From: a virus
Lineage: Duplodnaviria; Caudoviricetes
Virus record (IMG/VR): IMGVR_UViG_3300028840_005521
Location: 1 to 52,386 of that record
DNA length: 52,386 nt
Direction: 5' to 3' (one strand)
Shown here: positions 27,291 to 45,740 of the stretch, one piece after another
Position numbering within the stretch: position 1 is the stretch's first letter
Layout: each line of letters starts with the position of its first letter
Program-made: the position numbers and the translations under genes
The notes under the pieces: model-generated
The model's input: the letters and a program-made list of their open reading frames with translations, nothing else
What the model was told of the DNA's origin: nothing
The model's database searches: none

Positions 27291-27519
27291 GATACTGGCA
27301 GCATACGAAGGCCTCATGACCAAGAAGGATATGCGAAGGCTGAAAAGGAAACGGCGGGTTTGCAAACACAAAGGCCACATCTTTTACGCCGAGTTCTACG
27401 ACTCGTCAACCGGTGAAGTGTATTGCGAATGTCGGCGCTGCTTCCCTCACAAGGATTCAATTTTGAGAGGGAACCTCTATGATCTAATGCCGAAGGCAGA
27501 CATGAACGGAGACAACTGA
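27280..27519 (+). CDS. Small Cys/His protein
   Basis: CKHKGH...CRRC; coupled to the portal gene. Confidence 0.55.
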   Translation: MATEILAAYEGLMTKKDMRRLKRKRRVCKHKGHIFYAEFYDSSTGEVYCECRRCFPHKDSILRGNLYDLMPKADMNGDN

Positions 27520-29018
27520 TGGCCGTGCCTTTCGATGACACAAGCATCTCGAACGAGGTGCGGCAAGCGATCTTGCGTAAAGAACTTGAAACGCTCACAG
27601 CCAACGAGCAGGAATATCAGCGACTCAGAAGCTACTTCGACGGTAAGCAAGAGCTCACGTTCAGCACCGAAGTGTTTCACGAAACGTTCGGCGATGCTTT
27701 CGAAGGGTTTGCCGACAACTGGATGACACCGATCGTCGACACCGTGTTGGACAAGATGGAGCTGCGGGGAATCCAGCCGGCGAACGAAGAGATGCAAAAC
27801 CGGATGCAAACCCTCTGGGACGTGTTTCGGCGCAACGAGATCGATGAGGAACAGTTCTACCTTCACCAAGGATCCCTCGTTGAATCCACTGCCTACATGA
27901 TCGTTTGGCCAGACCAATCCAAAGGCGGAGTCAGGTTCGACTGGCAGCCCGCCTCCCTCGTTCGTGTCCGCTACTCGAGCGAAGACCGCAAGCGACCCCT
28001 GTGGGCTGTGAAACGCTGGGAAGCTGAAAGCGGCGACATCTACGTCTCGATCTACGACGACCAGGCAGTGTGGAAGTTCATCGAGAAAGAAGGATCCGAC
28101 GCCAGTTTGAAAGCCTCGAGCGCCGACGCCTACACAGAGATCGTCGACTCGGCGTTCCTCAACAACATGGTGAAGCGGGAAGTCGAAGGCGAAGAGTGGC
28201 CACTACGTCACCGGTTCGGACGGGTACCTGTAGTCGAATTCCCCAACGTTGGGTTCCGTAGCGAAATCGCCGACGCCACCAGGCAGCAAGACGCCATGAA
28301 CAAAACCCTCGTTGACATGATGGTTGCCGGTTCGTTCATGGCCTTCCCGCAACGCTACGTAGAAACCGCAGCCCATGCCCCCATCGGTGGATGGAACGCC
28401 GGGGCTGGCGAAGTGTGGCACTTCCGTCCCGGGTTTGACGCCGACGGACGACCCATCCAATCCACGTTCGGCCAGTTCGACACATCCGACCCATCCAACT
28501 ACATCAAAGTCGTTGAGATGTGGCTGCAACACATTGCCTTCACGTCCCGCACCCCGGTTCGCTACTTCATGTCGTCGGATAGGGGCGGGAGAGGCGATGC
28601 GCCGAGCGGTGAGTCGCTGCAGGTAGAAGACAAGCCCCTGAACGACAAGGTGGCGCGGAAGCAGAAGATTCTTGGTAACCGCTGGGTCGAGTTGGCATCG
28701 ATGGCAGCCACCTACGTCGATGGGGTCAACCCGAACGATCTGATCCTCGCCGAAATGATCTGGGAAGACCCGAGATACGAGAACCGGATCGCTGTGCTCG
28801 AGGAAGCAAAGTCGATGGTTGAGGTCGGGTTGCCGTTCAAGTGGATCATCCGCCAACTAGGTCTCAGGCCGGAAGAGATCGAAGACATCGAACGGTACAA
28901 GGACGAGGAAGTTGCCGAACAGCAACAGCGCCAAGACGAGATGATGGAACGAGCGAATAGTCAAGATTCTGACCAGAATTCAGACTCGGGTTCCGACGAC
29001 GAATCCGACGACGAGTAG
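27519..29018 (+). CDS. Portal protein (SPP1 gp6-like)
   Basis: YFDGKQ, NW..IVD, GRVPVVEF, FPQR, SGESL; size and position. Confidence 0.9.
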   Translation: MAVPFDDTSISNEVRQAILRKELETLTANEQEYQRLRSYFDGKQELTFSTEVFHETFGDAFEGFADNWMTPIVDTVLDKMELRGIQPANEEMQNRMQTLWDVFRRNEIDEEQFYLHQGSLVESTAYMIVWPDQSKGGVRFDWQPASLVRVRYSSEDRKRPLWAVKRWEAESGDIYVSIYDDQAVWKFIEKEGSDASLKASSADAYTEIVDSAFLNNMVKREVEGEEWPLRHRFGRVPVVEFPNVGFRSEIADATRQQDAMNKTLVDMMVAGSFMAFPQRYVETAAHAPIGGWNAGAGEVWHFRPGFDADGRPIQSTFGQFDTSDPSNYIKVVEMWLQHIAFTSRTPVRYFMSSDRGGRGDAPSGESLQVEDKPLNDKVARKQKILGNRWVELASMAATYVDGVNPNDLILAEMIWEDPRYENRIAVLEEAKSMVEVGLPFKWIIRQLGLRPEEIEDIERYKDEEVAEQQQRQDEMMERANSQDSDQNSDSGSDDESDDE

Positions 29019-30282: not shown

Positions 30283-31539
30283 GTGAACGTGAAGACCTAT
30301 CTCACTAAAGCCGCCCTTGATGCGGCTATTGCAAACCCATACGAAACCCTCCATGAACTGTTCGAAGAGGTTCGCCTCGGCAACTACTTCGGCGACGTTC
30401 TCGAGGGGCGCTCTGCCCTGAGCATTTTCGGTGCGGCAGAGGGAGCAGCCCCGGCTGGCTTCCTTGCCCGTGAAGACACTCTCGACACTGTTCCCGGCAA
30501 CCGGGGACTCACTGTTGACGGGCAAAGCGTTAACGACATCTGGACCGAAATGCAGGCCATGCTGTCGGCGTTCAACGCGAGCGCTGATGCCATTGTGGCC
30601 TACTTGACGTTCCCGGTGGTCGCCCACACCGAGCGTGTTGGCGTACCTATCAACCCCGGGTTCCAGAAAGCCACCGAGTTCGGACGCCCGAGCAAGATTC
30701 GGATGCAGCACGTTCTGCGCGGATTCCCAATCGAGCACTTCGACCTCGGCGACGGCTACACCCAGGAATACATCGATCTGGCAACCGGCGCTCAGCTACT
30801 CGCTGTGCAAGCCACTGTCACGACCGCCTGGGCGCAGCTACGGCGCGATATTGTCCTCAAGGCGTTGATGGAGGAATCCAACTACACCGACCAGGACGGT
30901 ATTGCAGTCAAGAGGCTCTACAACGGCGACGGTGAGGTTCCCCCCACCATCAAGCGTTGGACCCATGCCGGCACCCACACCCACTACCTGTACTCGGCAG
31001 GTATCGCGTTCGCTCAGGCCGATCTGGACTCGATGTCCGATCACCTGATCCACCACGGGTTCCGCGAGTTCGGCGATGCAGCTTTCATTCTGCACACGAA
31101 CCGTGACGACCTTCCTGGTGTGCGCGCATTTGCCAACTTCATCCCGGCAGAGACCGGCGAGCGTCCCCAGGAACTCGCCAACTCTGGTGTGGTACGAGGC
31201 CTCCAGCGTGGTGCTGGTGGACTCCAGGTAGAAGGCTGGTGCAACGACTGGACCATCGTTCAGAACAACGACGTCCCCAGCGGCTACCTCGTCGGTACCG
31301 TCTCCGGTGGACCGTTCGACGTTCGGAACGTTGTCGGTTTGCGTGTCCATGAGAACCCAAGCGCCCGCGGCTTGCGTCTCATCGAAGGCAACCGGCAGAA
31401 CTACCCGCTCTACGATTCCGTGTACGACGGATATCTCGGCGCCGGCGTAGGCCAGCGTGGTGCAGCGGTCATCATGTACGAGGACACCGGAACTGGCTCG
31501 GCATACGTCGACCCGACCGGTTTCCAAACTGGTGAGTAG
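30283..31539 (+). CDS. Major capsid protein
   Basis: 418 aa after scaffold/decoration; followed by a terminator. Confidence 0.85.
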   Translation: MNVKTYLTKAALDAAIANPYETLHELFEEVRLGNYFGDVLEGRSALSIFGAAEGAAPAGFLAREDTLDTVPGNRGLTVDGQSVNDIWTEMQAMLSAFNASADAIVAYLTFPVVAHTERVGVPINPGFQKATEFGRPSKIRMQHVLRGFPIEHFDLGDGYTQEYIDLATGAQLLAVQATVTTAWAQLRRDIVLKALMEESNYTDQDGIAVKRLYNGDGEVPPTIKRWTHAGTHTHYLYSAGIAFAQADLDSMSDHLIHHGFREFGDAAFILHTNRDDLPGVRAFANFIPAETGERPQELANSGVVRGLQRGAGGLQVEGWCNDWTIVQNNDVPSGYLVGTVSGGPFDVRNVVGLRVHENPSARGLRLIEGNRQNYPLYDSVYDGYLGAGVGQRGAAVIMYEDTGTGSAYVDPTGFQTGE

Positions 31540-31560
31540 CAACACGAACCAGTAAGCCCA

Positions 31561-31592
31561 GGAGGGGAGAGACCAGTTCTCTCCCCTCCGTT
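31561..31592 (+). terminator. Intrinsic terminator after the capsid gene
   Basis: GGAGGGGAGAGA/TCTCTCCCCTCC hairpin. Confidence 0.75.
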
Positions 31593-31668
31593 ACATCAGG
31601 TCGGTGCCGGGAGGCAGATGGGACGGCATCTCCCCCACCCCTCCCGGCACCCCTGAAAGAGAGATGCA

Positions 31669-32001
31669 ATGAAGATAGATGAGGGTCAACTCCAGCTGCG
31701 GATACGGGAACTGAAACGAACCGGCCGACCGGAGAAGGCATACCAGCTCCAAGTGGCAATCAAAGAAGGCAGGACGCCGGCCAAGCACCTGCTGTACGAT
31801 CAGGGGGAAAGCCCCGAAGAGAAAGAGATCATCGGCGAGATGCCGCCACGGACAGGAAGAGGATCTGGCAAGGTAGAGTGGGAAGCGTTCGCTCGAGAAC
31901 ACACCGACTGGCCAGACGAACTGATCGAAGGCGCTGGCGGACGGGACGACCTGATCAAAATGCTCGAGCTGAACGGGATCATCCCAAAAGAAAAGCGGTA
32001 G
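31669..32001 (+). CDS. Small head-associated protein
   Basis: C-terminal K.EW..FA...RDDLI helical motif; position after the capsid gene. Confidence 0.55.
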   Translation: MKIDEGQLQLRIRELKRTGRPEKAYQLQVAIKEGRTPAKHLLYDQGESPEEKEIIGEMPPRTGRGSGKVEWEAFAREHTDWPDELIEGAGGRDDLIKMLELNGIIPKEKR

Positions 32002-32050
32002 AGCTCAGTGAGTCTTGTAAGCTGGCGTGCAAATACACTGGGAGCAAGCA

Positions 32051-32269
32051 ATGGACGGATACACAATCGCTTGGCTACTGTGGGGCGCCATGTTCGTAGC
32101 CATCGAAGGCGCAGCGCTGCTCCGCAAAGAATCAGGCGACACGCTGAGTGAACACGTCTGGAAATGTTTCTCAGTGAAAGACAAGGCAAAGGGCTGGGTG
32201 GTGCGAAGAGGCGTGCTCGCCGTATTCCTCGCCTGGTTGACCGCCCACCTACTGGGAGCCGGGATCTGA
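32051..32269 (+). CDS. Small two-TM membrane protein
   Basis: YTIAWLLW...GDTLSEHVW...WLTAH. Confidence 0.65.
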   Translation: MDGYTIAWLLWGAMFVAIEGAALLRKESGDTLSEHVWKCFSVKDKAKGWVVRRGVLAVFLAWLTAHLLGAGI

Positions 32270-32655
32270 TGGTTGCTGAACGAGAATACGCGATGGTGAT
32301 GGCTGAGGTGGCCGCTCATGGTGGCTCGTTTTATGCGACCGCGATCGACAACAGCCAGGTGTTCAGCTACTACTTCGAGGCACACATCCGGGCAGCTGAG
32401 GAAACATACGGCTGTGACGTGTATCCGTATGCATACGGGACTGAAGGGTCGTTCCTGGTCATGGCTGCTGGTCATCATGGCTGGTGGCACGACCCGGAAA
32501 CAGCAACGTTGTATATGTCACAAGGGACCGACACCGACAAAGCGATCGTGTTCGGGTTGAACGCTGACCGGCTAGCGACGATCCTCGCAGCGGCGGCTAC
32601 TGACGGGATCAACGTGGTGCGGCAGGTCCGGTTGGACACGAACGAGGTGATCTAA
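32269..32655 (+). CDS. Hypothetical protein
   Basis: TGATG and TAATG coupling. Confidence 0.65.
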   Translation: MVAEREYAMVMAEVAAHGGSFYATAIDNSQVFSYYFEAHIRAAEETYGCDVYPYAYGTEGSFLVMAAGHHGWWHDPETATLYMSQGTDTDKAIVFGLNADRLATILAAAATDGINVVRQVRLDTNEVI

Positions 32656-34286
32656 TGGCCTTCACCGTTGTAGCCAACCTCGCCAACATCGACCTCGCTG
32701 AGTCTGCGACCACCTGGTCCATCGGGTCGCTGGACGCTGACAAGTATGTGCAAGGCAACAACTCGGTCGGGTTCTACATGACGAAGAACTTCCGGGGGTC
32801 CGTAACCATCACCCCTGCCTCATCAGTGGCGTGGGCCACCGGGGACCACCTCTATTTCTGGTTAGCATCGGACGTAGCCTCCAAGACCGAGGCCAAGACT
32901 ACCGGCACCACTACCGCTTCCGGGTACACCGTTCGGGTCACCCTGGCGTCCGGTGCATACCGCGAATGGCACTTCGCCGGATCAGATGTGTGGGACGGTG
33001 GCTGGCGCTGTTTTGTGATCGACCTCGGGCACACCGGCAATGAGCTGTACGCCAGCTCCGGTACTTTCTCGTCGGCATCCAACATCGCCAGCGTCACCTA
33101 CTACGTTGACCTCTCCAATTCGGGCAACATTCGGAACGTTCCGGCCAACCACTACGGAGACGCCATCCGAGTCGGCACCGGGCTGACCGCCTACAACACC
33201 TCCGCAACCGACGCAGCATTCGACCTGGCCGATATCGCAGCGGCCGATATGGCAACCGCCAACATGTACGGCATCCTCCAGACCCAGACCAAGGGCGGGT
33301 CTGCTCTCGGATGCCAAGGCCGAATCATCCTCGGAGACAGCGGGTCCACCAACCATCTCGACTTCGACTCCCAGGGAGAGCTACTGGAGTTCCTCCAAAG
33401 GGACGGCACCGGGGCAGGCATCGTTGCCAATGCCTTGTACGGCATCGAGGTGGTAGCCAACTCGACCGGCACCGACCAGGACTTCAAGATGGGGACCAAG
33501 GTGGGAACCGGAGCCAATGCTCGTGGCCGGGACGGCACCACCATCAGATCCGGTGGCTCAGCGGTGTACTGGTACTTCGAGTCGGTCGACGCTGACCTTC
33601 ACAACTTCACCATGTATGGCTCTACCCTGAGTGGAGCAATCGGTGGTACCAACTATGGCGTAGATCTGGACACCCCAACCACCACATTCGAAGTTGCGGG
33701 CTGCGTGTTCGATAGCTGTGAGGGCGTGGTGCTAGCCGACGCTGTGGCCACCTTCTGTACCTGGCAAAACTCTGCCACCGATGCCACCACCGGGGCGCTT
33801 GTGTGGCAAGACACCGAAACCGACATCGAGAACTGCTCGTTCATCAACAACGTGAACGGTATCTACATCGGGACGTTGACCGGGGACATCACCCTTTCCG
33901 GCATGACCTGGAGCGGCAACACCTACGACATCGAGTATGAGCACACCGCAGACTGGGACGCCAACTATGACGGGACCGCTCCATCGATCAATAACACCTC
34001 TACCGGCACGTTGACGGCAGTCTCCTCCAAGACCGCCACCTTCACCCCTGTCGAGAACGGATCGGCGTTTACGATCACCAGGAACAGCGACAACTTCCTC
34101 CTGCATGATGTTTCGTCCACTACTGGAGGCCAGGTCGTGTATACCTACGACGGTGCTCTGGATGCGACAGCAGCCACGGTTCACATCATCATTGTTGGTA
34201 AAGAACCCATCGACTTTCCGTGGACATTGGCAGAGGGGACTGTCCCCGTTTCTCAAGTCACAGATCGCATCTATTCCAACCCCTAG
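32655..34286 (+). CDS. Large beta-rich virion protein A (probable beta-helix region; ends DRIYSNP)
   Basis: Ser/Thr/Gly-rich; IENCSFINN-type repeats. Confidence 0.7.
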   Translation: MAFTVVANLANIDLAESATTWSIGSLDADKYVQGNNSVGFYMTKNFRGSVTITPASSVAWATGDHLYFWLASDVASKTEAKTTGTTTASGYTVRVTLASGAYREWHFAGSDVWDGGWRCFVIDLGHTGNELYASSGTFSSASNIASVTYYVDLSNSGNIRNVPANHYGDAIRVGTGLTAYNTSATDAAFDLADIAAADMATANMYGILQTQTKGGSALGCQGRIILGDSGSTNHLDFDSQGELLEFLQRDGTGAGIVANALYGIEVVANSTGTDQDFKMGTKVGTGANARGRDGTTIRSGGSAVYWYFESVDADLHNFTMYGSTLSGAIGGTNYGVDLDTPTTTFEVAGCVFDSCEGVVLADAVATFCTWQNSATDATTGALVWQDTETDIENCSFINNVNGIYIGTLTGDITLSGMTWSGNTYDIEYEHTADWDANYDGTAPSINNTSTGTLTAVSSKTATFTPVENGSAFTITRNSDNFLLHDVSSTTGGQVVYTYDGALDATAATVHIIIVGKEPIDFPWTLAEGTVPVSQVTDRIYSNP

Positions 34287-34370
34287 ACGCGTGACCCCTT
34301 TGACATCTGATGCTACGGTACGGAGAGATTTCCAAGATTTGTCAAACGCGAGGCGGCAAAGGACTAGCAC

Positions 34371-35972
34371 ATGGCGAAGATTACCGATCCTGACCAGTTG
34401 AATTTCGGCACTGAAATAGTGGTCGACACTACTGGTCCCAAAACCATTCAGCTAGTGGCGACCGGGAACCTGTCGAACGCTTCTCCAGCTGCCGTTAATG
34501 GTGTCACGATGCAGGCTGTCTATTCAAAGACAGTCGAGGGCTGGGAATCCACCCTTGCTTATCGTCGCCACTCGTTCCCGATCAAGATGTATACCCCAAA
34601 CGAGGGAGAGTGGATCAACTCCTGGGCGCCAGATGACGTCACCACCAACGAGCTGATCCGTGACGCCGGGATGATCGAGACCGACGGTACCTGGCACATG
34701 GGTCTGTTCACCCTGGGAGATTTCCCAGCAGACACAGACCAGGGATACTACGTCCAGTCTGGTGCTCTCGACGGGACCGTGGTCAACTTTGACCATACCG
34801 GTGAGATCAACGAGATGGTGGAGATCAAGGGAACTGGTGGTACCCCGGACAACACGTCCTACCTCGGTGTGTTCTATCGGACCCGCCCCAACTACTACGA
34901 CTTCTACGAAGTGGTCTCCGGGCTGCAGCTCTCTGCCCTGACCGCTAAGCGCGAATCGATTCCTCTCGGATCCACACCAGATCCACAGATCACCGAGTCG
35001 GACGCCAACATCGACGCCAACACGCCATACACCGGCATGACGCTCGACTTCCTGACCGGCGAGTACGGACTCGAAGGTGCGGCAGGCGGTGCAGAGACGT
35101 GGGCCATCTCCCAGGTGTATGCTGCTGGAGATGCCATTGCCGACTCGAGCGGTAGATACTTCCGGGTCACCGTCGGCGGCACATCGGCTGGTAACGACTC
35201 TGACCTGGCCGGTGGTTCGGACACGGGTGTGACCTACGAGGTCCACCCGGGTGAGCGCCAGATTGGATCGACCTACTATCTGTTCTCCCGGATCATCGAC
35301 GGCAACTTCGGATCTTTGTCTGAGTGTTACCAGTGGGGATGTCGCCAGGAGCGGCAAACCGGTGACATCAACGACGACATCAACCTTGACGGATTCGGAA
35401 CCGTGAAGGGCCAGCTCTGTCCGCACCTGTTCCAGTACCAGGCCGCCGGGTTCGACGGCACCATCCTCAAGCTGGCCGAAGGTGTCATGCTTGATGACCC
35501 GGCAGCAGCCGAAGCTAACAACATCGTCTTCTACCCGCACTCACTTGATGGCACCTACCCCAACTCAGGCAATGGTGTGCAGTACCCGTTCACGGTCAAC
35601 ATCCAGGTGCTCGATGCATCATCCAGCAACAACCTGGCCGGTGGCCGACTCACTTTGTTCTTCGCCAACGACGATGCCGGCGACAACCTCGGGTATGACT
35701 TCGACACCGACAATGCCATCGTGATGCAGGAAGACGACCTGACTCCGATCGACATCGCATCGTTCACGGCTGCTGAAATGAACTTCACCTACGACTATGA
35801 CGTGAACACCCAGCGAGGCACTGGCTCGGATGGCACACCTGTTCCTGTCAAGGCAGTGGCGATTAACGCAGGATCCTCTGAACCTATTGTGGTGGATGCC
35901 ACACTGACCAGAATCGACAACGTTGCGATTCGGATCAGTGCCCAGGACGACAGGAACTACTCGAATCCGTAA
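34371..35972 (+). CDS. Large virion protein B (ends DRNYSNP)
   Basis: Acidic beta-rich 533 aa; candidate own promoter at 34311. Confidence 0.7.
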   Translation: MAKITDPDQLNFGTEIVVDTTGPKTIQLVATGNLSNASPAAVNGVTMQAVYSKTVEGWESTLAYRRHSFPIKMYTPNEGEWINSWAPDDVTTNELIRDAGMIETDGTWHMGLFTLGDFPADTDQGYYVQSGALDGTVVNFDHTGEINEMVEIKGTGGTPDNTSYLGVFYRTRPNYYDFYEVVSGLQLSALTAKRESIPLGSTPDPQITESDANIDANTPYTGMTLDFLTGEYGLEGAAGGAETWAISQVYAAGDAIADSSGRYFRVTVGGTSAGNDSDLAGGSDTGVTYEVHPGERQIGSTYYLFSRIIDGNFGSLSECYQWGCRQERQTGDINDDINLDGFGTVKGQLCPHLFQYQAAGFDGTILKLAEGVMLDDPAAAEANNIVFYPHSLDGTYPNSGNGVQYPFTVNIQVLDASSSNNLAGGRLTLFFANDDAGDNLGYDFDTDNAIVMQEDDLTPIDIASFTAAEMNFTYDYDVNTQRGTGSDGTPVPVKAVAINAGSSEPIVVDATLTRIDNVAIRISAQDDRNYSNP

Positions 35973-35981
35973 GGGAGCACC

Positions 35982-36326
35982 ATGAGTGAGGTTGAGATAA
36001 TGGACGATGACATCAAGGTGTGGGAGCCGACTCACGGAAGTTCCAACACGGGAAAACGACGCCTGTGGAGACGCAACCGGAACGCTGCCTATCGCCAAGC
36101 ATACAAAGAGCGAATCGGCGAAGACCACCCGGCCTCTCTTGAGGAAGAGCCGGGGGAGGATCTTCGCAAGTTGCTCGAGAAGACCGAGCCTCCGCACGGG
36201 ATGAACTGGGATGACTTCGGGAAACTCTGGGATCTGCATCCCGAGCATCCGTACACCCCGGTCTTGAGGAAGCAGTCGGTGGATGCTGAGTGGCAGCGTC
36301 ACCTCGAAGAGCAGGGTCTAGCGTAG
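35982..36326 (+). CDS. Hypothetical charged protein
   Basis: AAGGGAG RBS. Confidence 0.65.
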   Translation: MSEVEIMDDDIKVWEPTHGSSNTGKRRLWRRNRNAAYRQAYKERIGEDHPASLEEEPGEDLRKLLEKTEPPHGMNWDDFGKLWDLHPEHPYTPVLRKQSVDAEWQRHLEEQGLA

Positions 36327-36335
36327 GAGGCCACT

Positions 36336-37061
36336 GTGGGGGCCAAGCTCTACGCAGACACAGCTAACAAAGTTCTGGTGATCACTCAGGCACCGGATGG
36401 TGACGGGTTCATCGACATCAACGTCCAAGTGGATGTGTGGTCTGACCTGATCGAAGACTGGGAAAGCGACGTGGTGCTTCGAGGTCACACGTTCCCAATT
36501 GTTCTCGTCGGCGCTCAGACAATCTCGGCTGGGAAGCTCGGGTCGACATACGTGTTGCTCGACCCGTGGCAGATCGAACCATACGAAGCCGACCATGACC
36601 TGAACATCAACGGCAACCTGTTCACCGAATCGGCATTGACGAAGCTGGTGTTGCCAACAGTTGGTGACTACACCGTGACTGTGAACCGGAACCTGTCGAC
36701 ACTCGTTGAGGTTGTCGAAACCGGCACGTCCGGGTTGACCCCAACCGAGTCGCAGGCACTCATCGACATCGATGCGAACGTCGACGCGTTGATTGTCGAC
36801 GTGGCTGCGCTCGAGGCCAAGATCGATTTGCTACTCAGCGCCCAGGATCTCACCAACGAGCAGAAAGAAGCGGAGCACTGGACAGAGATCTCACTAGCGC
36901 CCGAAACGACACCAGGGAAGCTGGTGCTGCGCAACACGTCGGTGCTGAGGCGATGGGAAGCTGACGCATATGAAACGGAGCCGGGAACCACCCCGATGAT
37001 CGGTTACCGCGGCACCGGTCTCGAGTACATCGGTCAGCTAGCGGAGGTGGCGTATTCGTGA
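36336..37061 (+). CDS. Virion protein C (N-domain paralogous to B, plus coiled coil)
   Basis: VWSDLIEDWES..LRGHTFPI; heptad segment; AGGAGG RBS. Confidence 0.7.
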   Translation: MGAKLYADTANKVLVITQAPDGDGFIDINVQVDVWSDLIEDWESDVVLRGHTFPIVLVGAQTISAGKLGSTYVLLDPWQIEPYEADHDLNINGNLFTESALTKLVLPTVGDYTVTVNRNLSTLVEVVETGTSGLTPTESQALIDIDANVDALIVDVAALEAKIDLLLSAQDLTNEQKEAEHWTEISLAPETTPGKLVLRNTSVLRRWEADAYETEPGTTPMIGYRGTGLEYIGQLAEVAYS

Positions 37062-37426
37062 GCCATACCGTCTATGCCCACCTGCCGGCCATCGGTCTCG
37101 GCAAACGAGACCCGATCCGTCCGCACGTAACAGGCGGTATCGGGGCGGGCTTGCCCTTGTTCATAACCGAAATCCTCGGTTCTCGCACCTACAGAGACGG
37201 GCTGCGTTCATACGTCGATCTCGACGCGGCGACCGTCAACGCCATACGCACCTACCTGATAGCTGAACGAGGCTTTGACGTCACAGAACGAACGTTTGTC
37301 CCATTTATCAGGTCAACGTCGCCTCTCGAGCGGCTCTGGTCGGATGTGATAAGGATCTGGGGCAAGTCGCAGCGGGAAGGCACATCGGCCCGCCTGTATC
37401 TCGACTCGAAACGCAACTACGACTAG
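37058..37426 (+). CDS. Hypothetical protein
   Basis: GTGA coupling. Confidence 0.65.
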   Translation: MSHTVYAHLPAIGLGKRDPIRPHVTGGIGAGLPLFITEILGSRTYRDGLRSYVDLDAATVNAIRTYLIAERGFDVTERTFVPFIRSTSPLERLWSDVIRIWGKSQREGTSARLYLDSKRNYD

Positions 37427-37435
37427 GATTCCAAC

Positions 37436-37813
37436 ATGGCTCTTTCCGCAGAAATCGTAACCCTGATCCGGGATGAAATCGGTGGTGACCCTGACTTCTC
37501 CGACGACGACGCCGGGTTTGACTCCGCTACCCAACTCGGGTCGCTCGAGGCTATCTACACAGCTGCCAAGCGTGGCAACGAGAACGTGCTCAGGACTGCC
37601 TTGATCTGTTGGCGGTTGCGACAGAAGGACTATGTGAAGCGCGGGTTCGACGCCACCGCATCTGGTTCGTTGATGGCACGTCGGCAGCGCATGAGGGAAC
37701 TGGACCGGATCGTGAAGGAATACGAGATGCTGGTTGACACGACCGCCCGACACGCCAACTCAACGGTGCAAAGCGACTATCAGCAACACGCTGACAGCTC
37801 AGAGTTCAGCTAA
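37436..37813 (+). CDS. Head-to-tail adaptor
   Basis: LIRDEIG.D...; size and position. Confidence 0.6.
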   Translation: MALSAEIVTLIRDEIGGDPDFSDDDAGFDSATQLGSLEAIYTAAKRGNENVLRTALICWRLRQKDYVKRGFDATASGSLMARRQRMRELDRIVKEYEMLVDTTARHANSTVQSDYQQHADSSEFS

Positions 37814-38205
37814 TGCGTGACAAGGCTTATCGGCTACTCCTCGAGCTGATAGTCGATGATTTGCAGAAATACACCGAAGCCTATTTGCCGGAAGAAGCTG
37901 TGGCGCTGATCACCGACAAAGGATGTATCCATCCGCTCATCAACCAGCGCAGATCAAAACATCAGTTCATGGTTTCCACCACGCTCGTGAAAGAAGCGAT
38001 CGAGGAGATCCATTACAGAGGTGATAGGGCTGTAGCTATCTTCCACAGCCACCCCACCTCGTCTGCCAACCCATCAGACGCCGACAAAGAGATGATGCAG
38101 CAAGCAGATGACACCGTGTTCATGATCCTGGGAACAGACCGCCTCTCGGCGTATATGTGGGAAGATGGGGAAGCCAAAGAGATAGCCCGAACCCGCCTGG
38201 AGTAG
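37813..38205 (+). CDS. JAB/MPN+ (JAMM) metalloprotease
   Basis: PEE...HSHPTSSANPSDAD fits E..HxHx7Sx2D. Confidence 0.88.
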   Translation: MRDKAYRLLLELIVDDLQKYTEAYLPEEAVALITDKGCIHPLINQRRSKHQFMVSTTLVKEAIEEIHYRGDRAVAIFHSHPTSSANPSDADKEMMQQADDTVFMILGTDRLSAYMWEDGEAKEIARTRLE

Positions 38206-40464: not shown

Positions 40465-40953
40465 ATGGCCCGAATAACCCCAGATGGGTATACCAAGGTT
40501 CACGTCGTCGACACGATTTCTTCGCTTGCCGCACCCACGGAAGCTGAGATCGCTGCCGGCACCGAAGTCACCCCGTTTCTCACCCCAGCTGGGCTGGACA
40601 CCCCCGAAGAAGGAACCGACGCCGACTCGAGCGACCTGAGTTCGGCTCGGGACAAGTCCATCCCGGCAACAATCGGTGGTGTGATCACCGGAGAGTTTTA
40701 CCGTGACGACGGGACAGGTGGCACAACCGACGACGCATGGACCGCTATGCCTCGCCTCAAGATCACGCACCTTGTCATCGCAAGGTTCGGTGGTTCAGAC
40801 ACCGACAACGCCATTCAGGCCACAGACAGCGTTGAGGTTTGGCCGGTGCGTGTATCGCAGCGTTCCAACTCTCGTCTTGCCCGTGGCGATGCCCTGCGTT
40901 TCACCGTCAACTTCGCCCTCAGGGACGACCCGGTAGACGGCACGGTTGCCTAG
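40465..40953 (+). CDS. Major tail (tube) protein
   Basis: DG.TKV..V.TI...APT.AEI...VEVWPV, actinophage tail-tube pattern. Confidence 0.85.
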   Translation: MARITPDGYTKVHVVDTISSLAAPTEAEIAAGTEVTPFLTPAGLDTPEEGTDADSSDLSSARDKSIPATIGGVITGEFYRDDGTGGTTDDAWTAMPRLKITHLVIARFGGSDTDNAIQATDSVEVWPVRVSQRSNSRLARGDALRFTVNFALRDDPVDGTVA

Positions 40954-42002: not shown

Positions 42003-45000
42003 GTGGCCGATCAGACCATTACCATACGCGTTAATGCGATCACAGGCCAAGCCCAAGCCCAACTTCTCGCAGTAGGCAAATCCACCGGCCAGATGGTCGG
42101 CCGAATGGACACTGCCGCCAGATCCGCCCAAGCCAAGATGCAGGCTTTCGGCTCTGCAGCTGCCACCTTCGGTAAAGTAGTGACCCTGGGTGTTGCTGGC
42201 GGGCTTGCGCTGTCTGCGAAAGCTGCCATCGATTTCGAATCGTCATTCACCGGTGTGAGGAAAACACTCGACGCGACCGAACCGCAGTTTCAGAAACTGA
42301 GCGACGGGATCCGGGACCTAGCCAAAGAAATCCCAGTTAGCGTGAACGAGCTCAATCGGATTGCCGAATTGGGAGGTCAGCTCGGCATCTCGGTGGGTGG
42401 TATCGAAGGCTTCACTGAAACCATTGCAAAAGTCGGGGCGACCACCACTGTCGCTGCAGACGAAGCGGCGATTTCGTTTGCCCGGATAGCCAACATCCTT
42501 GGGCTGGGTGAAAACCAATTCAGCCAACTCGGGTCCTCGCTAGTGGATCTGGGCAACAACTTCGCTACAACTGAAGACCAGATCCTCACTTTTGCTCTCC
42601 GCATTGCCCCGGTGGGCCAAACCGTCGGATTGACCGCCGACCAGGTGTTGGCATTAGCCACTGCGTTCTCGTCTGTTGGTGTGCCGGCTGAGCGTGGCGG
42701 AACTGCGGTGCAAAGAACATTCATCGAGATCGCTCGGGCAGTGCAAGAGGGTGGTGCAACTCTTGACACCTTTGCAGAGGTCGCGGGTGTCACTGTCGGA
42801 GAATTCTCTGAGCTGTTTGAAAGCGATGCAGCCGCAGCCCTCGATTTGTTCCTCATCGGGTTGGGTCAAGTTGCTGCTGCCGGGGGGAACGTATTTGATG
42901 TGCTCGACCGGGTGAATCTTGGCAACCAGCGAACAGTGCAAGCGTTGCTTGCTGTCGCCAACTCGAGCGGCATTCTCACCGAAGCGTTAGAAACCGGTGC
43001 TTCAGCATTCAACGAATACGATGCCCTGACCGAAGAGTTCGACAAACGCCTCGAGACGACTGCCAGCAAGCTCACAATCGCCAAGAACCAGATCGTCGAC
43101 TTGGGTATCGAGATCGGGACCACATTGCTGCCACTGATCGGAGACGCAGCCGAGAAGTTCCAAGACTTCGCTGCTGGCATCGGGGCTGTCGACGGACCGG
43201 CCCGAGCCTTGCTAAAGATACTTGCAGCGTTGATACCGGCACTGACCATCTCTGGGATAGCTGGCAGCAAGCTCACAAAGATCTTCGGAGTGTTCCTGCC
43301 AAATGCTTTCAAGGGCGCCACCGCCAGTGCAGCACTTCTCCGGGGAGCTCTCGGGTTCGGCTTCCTCGCAGCTGTCGGCGCAGTGGTGAAGATCATAACC
43401 GATATCGGCACAGCAGCCAGAGAGTCGAGCCAACGCGTCGATGATCTGGCCGAAGCTGTTGCGAACGTTGGGTCTTCGAACGTCCGTGACTTGATTATTG
43501 GTGGGTTGGGCGAGAAAGACCGGAAGCTGCTTGACGATCTGGGCATCAGTTACAAAGTGTTCGCTGATGCTGTGCTCGGCAACGAAGTCGCACAGAAAAT
43601 CCTCGAAGACTTCCTGGTGATCGAAGACTCAACTGGTGCCTATCTCGAAACAGCAGACAAAGCGATCCAGTTGCAGAGCTTGTTGACGGAACGCACCGAC
43701 GAGTACACAGCGGCTTTGGAGCGGCAACGCCAGGCGGCGGCTCAGGAGGTGGAGCAAGCGAATTTGGAAGCCATCGCGGAGGGCTACGAATCGATCGACG
43801 AGAAGATGCGCGAAGAAGCACTGATGAACGCGGCATCTGGGATTACGGAAATTGGCGATGCTGCGGACTATACGGCTGACGAGTTGGACGAACTCGCTGA
43901 CCAAATGGAAGACGCCTTTGACGAGTTCGATTCGATTATTGACGCTTCCGACAATTTCATCGATTCGATTGTCAACCTGGCAGAAGCCCAGGCCGAACTC
44001 AACGACACTACTGAACCCACTTTCGAACAGCTTCAGGCAGTGAGGGGCGCATTCACCGATCTAACCCGGGCTGCTCGAGACCTCGGCCCCGAAGGCATCC
44101 AACCAGCCATTGCCCAGCTCGACCAGATGTTGCTTCTTGGTCTCTTAAACGAGGAGCAGTACCTCGAGTTCTTGAACATCCTGCTCACGATGCAGCCAGT
44201 GGCTAACGCCTTCGCTGGTGGTGCCGATTTGATCGTAGGCAACATGGACGCTGTGGCCGGTGCCGCAGAAATCGCTGGTGTCTCTGTTTCCGAATTCATC
44301 AACTTGCTACTCGGCCTCGACGCAGCCATGTTGGGAACAATCCAGAACGCCGGCAACTTCGCGGCAGCAATCGGGTTAGCCAACCGGGCTGTGCAGTCGG
44401 GTCTCGGCACCACCGTTTTCGGAGCTATCGCTGAAGACCTCGGCACCGACATCAGGTTGGTGGATCAGATAGCTCGCCGCATCCAGGAACTCGAAAGTGG
44501 TTTCGTATCTATCGGTGGCGACATCGCAACGGCTATTGGCACAGGGATTCGCGGTGGCGGTGGCGGTGGCGGTGGCGGTGGGGCTGGCCCCATCGAAGAG
44601 GCCGTTGAGGATGAACTCGAGGCAGCGTTAGAACTAATCCAGAGCCAACTCGACGCGTTCCGTGGGGCCATCGACGCCAACAGGGACTACATCAAGAGCA
44701 TTCAGGAACTCAAAGACGCTGAGGAAGAGCTGGCCGAGCTCAGACGGGAACAAGCCGACCTCCCGGACCAGATAGCCGAAGCTGAAGAACGGTTGCAAAG
44801 AGCGCGGGAGGATGCGGCTCGTGTCACTTTGGATGAGCAACTGGCAATCGAGATCGCTGAGGAAAACCTTGCCAGAGCGCAACTGGCTTATGCGCAGGGG
44901 CGTATATCTCTCACCGAACTGCAGATAGCAGAACGTGAACTCGAAGAAGCCCGAGCTGACGCCACTGGGCCAACCGATGAAGTAGCCGAAGCTGAGGAAG

Positions 45001-45740
45001 AGCTTGAAGATCTGCGGCAAAGAGAAATCGAGATTGCCGAAGACCTCGCCGACGCTGAACTTGCCCTACTTGATGCCCAGCTGGCCCTTATCGACGCTCA
45101 AATAGATCTCGTTAATGCCGGTAGGGACTTCAACGAACTGGGAAGAGACGGTATCGACATCTTCAGGGCATTGGCAGAAGAGGTCGGGCTGACGGCAGAA
45201 GCTATTGAACGCCTGATCGAACTAGGCCTCGGGGTCGAAGATGTGGACTCGGTTCTTGGAGGTCGGCTGATACCGGCAATATCAGGAGGGGACGAAGATG
45301 ATGGCGCCCCAACTGATCCGTCATCTCGCACCTACACAGTCAAAGCCGGCGACACGCTCGGAGCCATAGCCGCACGCCTGGGCACGTCAGTGAGCAACCT
45401 GGTTGCTCTCAACGGCACCGTATACAACTCACTATCAGGTGTCTCGAGATCACTTGACCCGGATCTCATTTACCCAGGCGACATTCTCAAATACGCTTTG
45501 GGTGGAGTGGTGCCCGGGATGCTCGGGCAGCCCCAGCTCGCTATTGTGCATGGCGGCGAACAGATCCTTTCCCCATCAGCGACTCGGCGCCAACATCAAC
45601 TAGAATCCCAGCCCATAATGATCGAGAACCTGAATTTGCAGGGAGTGTTTGACCCAACTCGACCCCAAGAGTGGGCCCGGATCATGCGAGCAGTGAGAAA
45701 CGACCTGGAATATGACAGACGGTCACGAGGGGGCAGATAA
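42003..45740 (+). CDS. Tape measure protein with C-terminal LysM domain
   Basis: AIDFESSFTGVRKT core; long helical region; YTVKAGDTL..IA..LG...IYPGDIL LysM. Confidence 0.93.
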   Translation: MADQTITIRVNAITGQAQAQLLAVGKSTGQMVGRMDTAARSAQAKMQAFGSAAATFGKVVTLGVAGGLALSAKAAIDFESSFTGVRKTLDATEPQFQKLSDGIRDLAKEIPVSVNELNRIAELGGQLGISVGGIEGFTETIAKVGATTTVAADEAAISFARIANILGLGENQFSQLGSSLVDLGNNFATTEDQILTFALRIAPVGQTVGLTADQVLALATAFSSVGVPAERGGTAVQRTFIEIARAVQEGGATLDTFAEVAGVTVGEFSELFESDAAAALDLFLIGLGQVAAAGGNVFDVLDRVNLGNQRTVQALLAVANSSGILTEALETGASAFNEYDALTEEFDKRLETTASKLTIAKNQIVDLGIEIGTTLLPLIGDAAEKFQDFAAGIGAVDGPARALLKILAALIPALTISGIAGSKLTKIFGVFLPNAFKGATASAALLRGALGFGFLAAVGAVVKIITDIGTAARESSQRVDDLAEAVANVGSSNVRDLIIGGLGEKDRKLLDDLGISYKVFADAVLGNEVAQKILEDFLVIEDSTGAYLETADKAIQLQSLLTERTDEYTAALERQRQAAAQEVEQANLEAIAEGYESIDEKMREEALMNAASGITEIGDAADYTADELDELADQMEDAFDEFDSIIDASDNFIDSIVNLAEAQAELNDTTEPTFEQLQAVRGAFTDLTRAARDLGPEGIQPAIAQLDQMLLLGLLNEEQYLEFLNILLTMQPVANAFAGGADLIVGNMDAVAGAAEIAGVSVSEFINLLLGLDAAMLGTIQNAGNFAAAIGLANRAVQSGLGTTVFGAIAEDLGTDIRLVDQIARRIQELESGFVSIGGDIATAIGTGIRGGGGGGGGGGAGPIEEAVEDELEAALELIQSQLDAFRGAIDANRDYIKSIQELKDAEEELAELRREQADLPDQIAEAEERLQRAREDAARVTLDEQLAIEIAEENLARAQLAYAQGRISLTELQIAERELEEARADATGPTDEVAEAEEELEDLRQREIEIAEDLADAELALLDAQLALIDAQIDLVNAGRDFNELGRDGIDIFRALAEEVGLTAEAIERLIELGLGVEDVDSVLGGRLIPAISGGDEDDGAPTDPSSRTYTVKAGDTLGAIAARLGTSVSNLVALNGTVYNSLSGVSRSLDPDLIYPGDILKYALGGVVPGMLGQPQLAIVHGGEQILSPSATRRQHQLESQPIMIENLNLQGVFDPTRPQEWARIMRAVRNDLEYDRRSRGGR

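Follow-up and report, generated by a model that had tools for sequence, protein, structure and literature searches.

The complete 52,386-bp record of the virus IMGVR_UViG_3300028840_005521 (Duplodnaviria; Caudoviricetes), which carries terminal repeats and was analyzed over its full length (hereafter the window), contains four neighboring genes, here denoted A, B, s114, and C, that lie downstream of the major capsid gene and upstream of the neck and tail-tube genes. A, B, and C are homologous to gp54, gp53, and gp55 of cyanophage Syn5, the four genes form one accessory cassette, and the best explanation is that the cassette encodes an extra virion fiber, most likely carried on the head like the horn of Syn5. 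We put the probability of this reading at about 0.6. Gene A (32655-34286) encodes a gp54-type subunit of 543 amino acids, with an exchangeable N-terminal body and a conserved C-terminal docking domain. Gene B (34371-35972) encodes a gp53-type hub subunit of 533 amino acids with homology to gp53 over its full length. Gene C (36336-37061) encodes a gp55-type subunit of 241 amino acids composed of an N-terminal module (N-module), a helical stalk, and a short C-terminal part. Between B and C lies s114 (35982-36326), a conserved small gene for a protein of 114 amino acids. All four are on the plus strand. An initial annotation, made from the sequence alone, had the positions and lengths of A, B, and C correct; s114, the fourth gene of the cassette, was absent from it.

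The kinship with Syn5 is detected in all three of the larger genes. A tblastn search of 50,697 phage records with B matched six, namely Syn5 (twice), the Syn5-like phage S-TIP28, one Caudoviricetes sp., Maribacter phage Panino, and virus Rctr197k. B is 30.1% identical to Syn5 gp53 over residues 1-533 (tblastn E 2e-43; BLASTP E 1e-50), C matches Syn5 gp55 (E 1.3e-7) and Panino CDS0097 (E 1.6e-5), and the C-terminal end of A is 55% identical to that of gp54 over 20 amino acids (E 0.005). The same phage collection gave no tblastn match to A and no match to the cassette region at the DNA level. In Syn5 (Autographiviridae, Voetvirus), as in the window, homologues of all three are encoded by adjacent genes on one strand, with C-terminal [DE]RxYxNP tails and the N-module motif YS..K..W...FP. 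The two phages differ in other respects. Syn5 is a T7-like podovirus, whereas the phage of the window is long-tailed with an actinophage-like capsid protein; the gene order is B-A-C in Syn5 and A-B-s-C here; the window has s114 as a fourth gene, which none of the Syn5 proteins set against it (gp46-48, gp50, and gp52-58) matches; and the C protein of the window is longer by about 70 residues and includes a helical stalk. The phage of the window, in addition, is known only as an uncultivated virus record.

Reportedly, gp53 and gp54 are the horn proteins of Syn5, and the horn is a thin process on the capsid vertex that lies opposite the tail. The GenBank record of Syn5 (NC_009531) marks gp53, gp54, and gp58 as structural; gp55 (L001:11226-11696) is without such a mark. 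By homology and synteny, gp55, a published candidate capsid knob, belongs to the horn cassette. Papers citing Syn5 yielded no horn protein assignment, the literature at hand (few subscription journals covered) described no relatives of the horn genes outside Syn5-like cyanophages, and in the searchable literature the horn is without a solved structure or known function.

Conservation of the cassette was surveyed in 83 sources, comprising the window, Syn5, Panino, and 80 viral loci, some of them near-duplicates, with open reading frames (ORFs) grouped by BLAST. For this, 165 relatives of B were collected, and the 80 loci were drawn from at least 535 of 600 scanned stretches that encode a relative. 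The combined B and C family is present in 82 of the 83 sources and the A family in 76 (81 proteins, Syn5 gp54 included). A, B, and C occur together, as adjacent genes on one strand, in 70 of the 83, which bears out the conserved triad expected from the initial annotation. In ten of the 13 sources without the full triad, the locus breaks off no more than about 1.3 kb from the cassette; two more (L048 and L070) actually contain the missing genes, which were dropped by greedy gene choice, and one (L074) has no C within 2.3 kb. The gene order is either A-B-(s)-C or B-A-C. Relatives of s114 are found in 33 of the 83 sources by BLAST grouping and in 36 by iterated profile, always between B and C; s114 matches nothing in Pfam, PHROG, or the ESM Atlas, and a role as an assembly factor or helper would be a guess. 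An exhaustive profile search places the size of the B family at 1,173 representatives (clustered at 50% identity) at E ≤ 1e-3; the stricter cut-offs of 1e-10 and 1e-30 leave 868 and 518, respectively. Very large phage genomes also carry the cassette, with contigs of 146-210 kb among the loci.

The accessory status of the cassette is evident from one close relative, L084, which was found through its capsid protein. Its portal, capsid, JAB-domain, and tail tube proteins are 69%, 77%, 64%, and 75% identical to those of the window, and it has no trace of A, B, s114, and C or of the genes on either side of them (g163 and g122, described below). The slot in L084 (12193-13647) holds unrelated ORFs of 109 and 362 amino acids. 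Because L084 is without the cassette, a virion of this kind can evidently be made without it, and because other ORFs take its place there, the slot between the connector-like and neck genes is a variable accessory position. Such dispensability is more readily expected of an accessory appendage than of a core part of the neck or tail.

The sequences of the cassette proteins point to two kinds of terminal module. The initial annotation had noted an N-terminal module common to B and C, and profile comparison confirms it. A pairwise BLASTP alignment of the two window proteins gives 11 identities in 24 positions (E 3e-5), and a hhalign comparison of a C-only with a B-only profile reaches a probability of 96.0% (E 4.5e-9) over 52 columns that pair C residues 3-62 with B residues 14-78; one fusion protein, which would have swamped the result, had been taken out beforehand. 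The C-only hidden Markov model matches 18 of 23 B proteins. The common part corresponds to 34410-34604 in B, where it is a putative socket, and belongs in C to an N-module of residues 1-125 (36336-36710), likewise a putative socket, with a predicted local distance difference test (pLDDT) score of 87-98 over residues 1-120.

A C-terminal module common to A and B had also been proposed. Its tail is conserved in both families, with the consensus LPIxQxxD[R]xYxNP in A-type and ..ERNYSNP in B-type proteins, and the window proteins end in DRIYSNP (A, residues 537-543; 34263-34283) and DRNYSNP (B, residues 527-533; 35949-35969). Asp537 of A is invariant in an alignment of 37 A proteins, and among ORFs of at least 150 amino acids a C-terminal [DE]Rx[YF] ending is found in 66 of the 83 sources, nearly all in the A or B family. 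Beyond the tail, the claim stands less firmly. The conserved C-terminal domain of A comprises 120 amino acids (33924-34283) and ends in the tail LPIxQxxDRxYxNP, and the last 90 residues of the A family have the sequence look of the B-type domain. The profiles of the two C-terminal domains match weakly (probability 37%, E 3.5e-4) in an alignment of 72 columns that reaches to the tail, and a pairwise BLASTP of A against B is not significant (E 1.9). The whole C-terminal domains of A and B are likely homologous. An isopeptide or SpyTag-like role of the tail was considered and dropped, as the N-module alignments contain no conserved lysine partner. A pattern of T against Y/F between the tail arginine of A and the N-module of B was seen by eye; it involves too few independent changes to count as evidence.

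Docking of the B tail onto the N-module of C is predicted by structure modeling. A complex of B residues 400-533 with C residues 1-130 has an ipSAE (interaction prediction score from aligned errors) of 0.76 (runs of 0.75, 0.80, and 0.76), against 0.01 for the best of three controls. In a benchmark, 58 of the 80 solved complexes but just 2 of the 110 mismatched pairs attained the mark, a calibration that holds only roughly here because custom alignments were supplied. The runs have at least 61% of their contacts in common, and the pLDDT of the partners is at least 81. On B, the interface consists of residues 425-430, 444-451 (motif FDT..A.V), 461, a strand at 494-507, and the tail at 527-533. 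On C, it consists of residues 9-10, 31-53 (WS..IEDWE..LRGHTF), 57, 60-62, 67, and 70. The part of the N-module that is common to B and C is the part that forms the interface. Recall of a known complex is unlikely to explain the prediction because there is no solved relative by sequence. Contact between the DRxYSNP tail and the N-module, as proposed earlier, thereby passes in the B-C model, where both of the motifs noted earlier lie in the interface; the model supports, rather than shows, binding of B to C by the tail.

Further points of agreement come from the sequences of the cassettes. Four natural fusions of B to C are known (P0108, P0111, P0153, and L050, the last at L050:10001-11947), with lengths of 644-652 amino acids, in which a degenerate tail D/E-x-G-Y is followed, with almost no linker, by a C-type N-module. 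These fusions lend independent support to a putative B-C contact. The tails of A and B agree at 3.78 of 6 variable positions when taken from the same cassette and at 2.87 when taken from different cassettes (permutation p 5e-5, 40 de-duplicated loci), and the socket motifs of B and C agree at 8.84 and 7.77 of 27 positions, respectively (p 5e-5, 31 loci); since shared ancestry inflates both differences, they are consistent with matched tails and sockets and not decisive. In the window, the socket motifs of B and C match at 11 of 27 columns, compared with the average of 8.84 within one cassette, and in Syn5-type clades the C socket motif is clearly unlike that of B.

These results suggest how the proteins could be joined. 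B would act as the conserved hub, its C-terminal beta-sandwich and free DRNYSNP tail plugging onto the N-module of C. The C-terminal domain of A, with its near-identical tail, would plug likewise onto the homologous N-module of B; that this module receives the A tail domain is suggested by the fact that the part common to B and C is the interface part. The outcome would be a heteromeric end-to-end chain A-B-C, with links that are possibly oligomeric, rather than a long polymer of B. The bodies of A and C would then be exchangeable and presumably ligand-binding ends, and s114 may help in assembly. A and C look like exchangeable ends of a B hub because the body of A has been swapped and the extensions of C are variable.

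The swap of the A body is visible in another locus. Homologues of A over its full length, with 22-33% identity, are present in many cassettes. The A-type gene at L004:2026-3588 has only the last 107 amino acids in common with A of the window, at 76% identity, and the B protein of the same locus is 81% identical to that of the window. The comparison reads as a domain swap with its boundary at the docking domain. A has no Pfam or PHROG family, sequence searches of the PDB with A and with the A family gave no match, and its named structural neighbors in the Atlas have template modeling (TM) scores of at most 0.42. A beta-helix in A, which the initial annotation had held to be probable, is no more than hinted at: the Pfam family Beta_helix matches 1 of 15 A homologues (E 2.3e-4), and the A protein of the window is not among the matched ones. 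One locus, on a contig of 210 kb, encodes a 2,492-amino-acid A-type protein with the standard tail (L077:2463-9941).

The C family is variable behind its N-module. C proteins range from 143 to 806 amino acids across the loci, with extensions of 0 to about 650 amino acids, and the family alignment comprises 35 proteins, gp55 (L065) included. In the window, C residues 136-169 (36741-36842) form two helices in the model by DSSP (136-152 and 156-169, pLDDT about 60-75), a candidate coiled-coil stalk. Long C-type proteins of about 390-470 amino acids (L010:3076-4494, L014:2631-3962, L017:12251-13642, L026:12285-13463, L043:7842-9020, and L056:4692-5969) have a repetitive, beta-helix-looking extension after the N-module. 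A fold search of the C model against 48,161 chains gave no match with Z of at least 5, the best being an FHA secretion domain at Z 4.3 (root-mean-square deviation, rmsd, 4.0; 87 residues aligned), and Foldseek gave no match at E ≤ 0.001, which does not by itself make the fold novel. Matches of C in Pfam and PHROGs are sub-threshold and due to chance, and the PDB sequence search with C gave none. An Ig-like PDB match (9d7z) was dismissed as insignificant; no PDB sequence match to A, B, or C falls below E 0.07.

B likewise belongs to no Pfam or PHROG family and has no match in a PDB sequence search. Its AlphaFold2 model has a pLDDT of 85.7 and a predicted TM score of 0.76. By a fold search of the model, residues 404-533 (35580-35969) form a CnaB/transthyretin-like beta-sandwich. 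The C-terminal domain matches SlaB (8qox_B; Z 8.8, rmsd 2.3, 93 aligned), and residues 404-531 match CnaB pilin-type domains at Z 7-8 (rmsd 2.5-3.1, 86-98 aligned), a Z range common among unrelated sandwiches. No part of the model other than this sandwich is matched; full-length alignments to pilins, with TM scores of 0.13-0.19 and rmsd of 17-20, were discounted. The best viral structural match of the model is Syn5 gp54, an A-type protein, at E 9e-7 but with a TM score of only 0.25. The candidate promoter that the initial annotation had proposed for B is not supported: a TTGACA is present at 34300, yet a scan of 31500-37600 gave no sigma-70-like sites, where 2.2 are expected in shuffled sequence.

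The head is somewhat favored as the site of the fiber, on the basis of the reported Syn5 localization, the position of the cassette in the head/neck block, and the genes that flank it; in other loci the recognizable flanks are mostly of terminase, portal, protease, and Ig-domain families, which overlap, so that their counts are not additive. The head filament put forward in the initial annotation survives to the extent that the genes form a virion-appendage cassette, that no relatives of it other than the horn genes of Syn5 have been studied, and that the head is its best-founded site; the pilus-like part is not supported. A number of points weigh against a horn-like head fiber. The cassette proteins are putative components of this virion with a putative site on it, gp53 and gp54 are horn proteins by report, the complex prediction with its rough calibration covers one (B-C) of three proposed contacts, the tail and socket statistics are inflated by ancestry, and, once the tail is set aside, A and B show little homology in their C-terminal domains (probability 37%). 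The accessible part of the Panino paper describes a plain podovirus and mentions no head appendage. In Syn5, the genes for gp53-55 come after the tail-fiber gene region and before the terminase genes, and some cassettes adjoin tail-fiber families (several families, of two members each). The latter two facts would also suit a side fiber borne on the tail or neck (a collar, whisker, or auxiliary receptor-binding fiber) in place of a head appendage, as would the position of the cassette directly upstream of the neck genes, the tailspike-like beta-helix in 1 of 15 A homologues together with the beta-helical look of long C forms, and low-TM Foldseek matches of the B model to proteins named 'tail-collar fiber' and 'baseplate'. 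We consider such a fiber unlikely, though the strongest of the competitors: the one experimental localization in the family, that of the Syn5 horn, reportedly puts it at the capsid vertex away from the tail, the recognizable flanks consist chiefly of terminase, portal, and protease genes, and the distal tail genes of the window come after its tape-measure-sized gene (42003-45740). A different site again follows from Gipson et al. 2014, where gp55 is assigned to two capsid knob densities per hexon, by the authors' own account from secondary-structure content only; if that assignment is right, C would be a capsid knob and not a link in a fiber. The N-module, of about 125 amino acids, does fold independently, and it could be a capsid-binding knob, with C as a multi-copy decoration of the capsid, B held on the shell through its own copy of the module, and the predicted B-C contact non-biological. 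This is very improbable, given that the Syn5 record lists gp53, gp54, and gp58 but not gp55 as structural, that B and C are found together in the cassette, with C joined to the B tail in four fusion proteins, and that docking scores 0.76 versus 0.01 for controls.

A horn-like fiber could also be built in another way, and the initial annotation had proposed a pilus-like polymer, C-(B)n-A, in which copies of B stack head to tail by docking of the tail into the N-module, with a single C as the base and A as an adhesin tip. The near-identical tails of A and B in the window and the likeness of the B and C sockets (11 of 27) mean that the B tail might fit the N-module of B itself, the B-C docking prediction passed, and the exchange of the A body in the close relative L004 is as expected of a tip. 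The four fusions point the other way, since they give each B its own C module, with the tail occupied and the ratio fixed at 1:1, which argues against C as a single base beneath a B polymer. The Syn5-type C socket, clearly unlike that of B, suggests tail-specific pairing, and the extensions of C, which are often long and differ among loci (total length up to 806 amino acids), are unlike a base. No longer fused forms of B were found in a search for proteins of 934-2665 amino acids, which is weak evidence. Polymerization by donated strands as in pili is not supported by the predicted interface, which is a broad face of the beta-sandwich plus the tail; no pilin-type fold was found, and the pilin motifs LPxTG and YPKN are absent from A, B, s114, and C. 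We therefore regard the polymer as rather improbable and prefer the heteromeric A-B-C chain.

Comparison with known appendages places the putative chain in context. The long tail fiber of T4 consists of separate proteins, gp34-gp35-gp36-gp37, joined end to end by terminal domains, with exchangeable distal parts. The cassette would resemble it in end-to-end joining by dedicated terminal domains and in its exchangeable distal parts, and differs in having no sequence or fold relation to it, in its likely place on the head rather than the baseplate, and in its connectors: on one side a C-terminal beta-sandwich with a heptad tail, on the other the N-module, some 125 amino acids long and of unmatched fold. 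In the model, the C-terminal domain of B resembles the CnaB-type sandwich of sortase-assembled pili of Gram-positive bacteria (group B Streptococcus pilins, a CnaB2 domain), a likeness of fold only and at commonly seen Z values; here, there is no LPxTG or YPKN and no sortase gene nearby. Chaperone-usher pili embody the same idea of a terminal peptide that binds or completes the next subunit. In contrast to them, contact is predicted across a wide domain surface together with the tail and not through a single donated strand, the N-module has no clear match to a solved fold, and the cassette contains no usher or chaperone genes. The head filament of phiCbK, the head fibers of phi29 (gp8.5), and Hoc of T4 are dispensable capsid-borne structures thought to aid adsorption. 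The cassette is dispensable too, and no homology to these structures was found, B having matched just six of the 50,697 phage records.

The genes around the cassette follow the order of a long-tailed phage. A portal gene (27519-29018; PF05133, E 1.8e-25) is followed by a scaffold-like and then a cement-like gene, the major capsid gene (30283-31539; phrog_3990, E 2e-66), and a small connector-like gene (31669-32001; phrog_6587, E 1.6e-5). Directly flanking the cassette are genes for proteins of 163 amino acids (g163; 32164-32655, plus strand) and 122 amino acids (g122; 37058-37426, plus strand), both inside the indel relative to L084 and outside the conserved cassette. Neither has a homologue in L084; g163 is present in the window only among the 83 sources, and g122 has no relatives among the loci. 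By the survey of the 83 sources, none of the flanking genes of the window counts as a member of the cassette. Further downstream are a gene for a JAB/MPN metalloprotease-domain protein of 130 amino acids (37813-38205, plus strand; PF14464, E 3.1e-10, above the cut-off), a DUF6093 gene (38209), a Neck1-like gene, the tail tube gene (40465-40953; PF25595, E 1.5e-25), and the tape-measure-sized ORF of 1,245 amino acids, after which come the phage's own distal tail genes. The placement of the cassette between capsid and neck-type genes, much as in the initial annotation, is confirmed by phrog_3990 on one side and DUF6093 and PF25595 on the other. The JAB protein, 64% identical in L084, lies among neck genes, and minor-tail PHROGs match it too.

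In the phage collection, the relatives of the capsid protein are actinobacteriophages only (161 records, 35-37% identity), and this kinship suggests an actinobacterial host. The window contains no tRNA genes that could provide a further clue to the host. Between 18001 and 20000 the G+C content falls to 0.476, compared with 0.52-0.60 elsewhere, and the AT skew changes sign near 20 kb, at a switch of gene strand. The region around 20 kb is probably a divergent early/late control region.

The cassette of the window joins a known but barely understood kind, the Syn5 horn, and the wider plug-and-socket pattern is the interesting part. We tentatively suggest, with the odds somewhat against so broad a statement, that the horn is a widespread, mobile plug-and-socket kit of tailed phages of every morphotype, in which B is the hub, A docks by its C-terminus and C by its N-terminus, and s is often included as a helper. 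Its exchangeable ligand-binding bodies on the capsid would constitute a second, head-borne adsorption organ, with gp55 as part of the horn and not a capsid knob. If the cassette is the general form of the horn, small recombinant fragments would suffice to test how the horn assembles, the knob assignment published for gp55 needs re-examination, and a large unnamed family of virion proteins (B, with its 1,173 representatives) gains a role. Many uncultivated phages would then carry a dispensable second attachment organ, which would bear on the prediction of host range.

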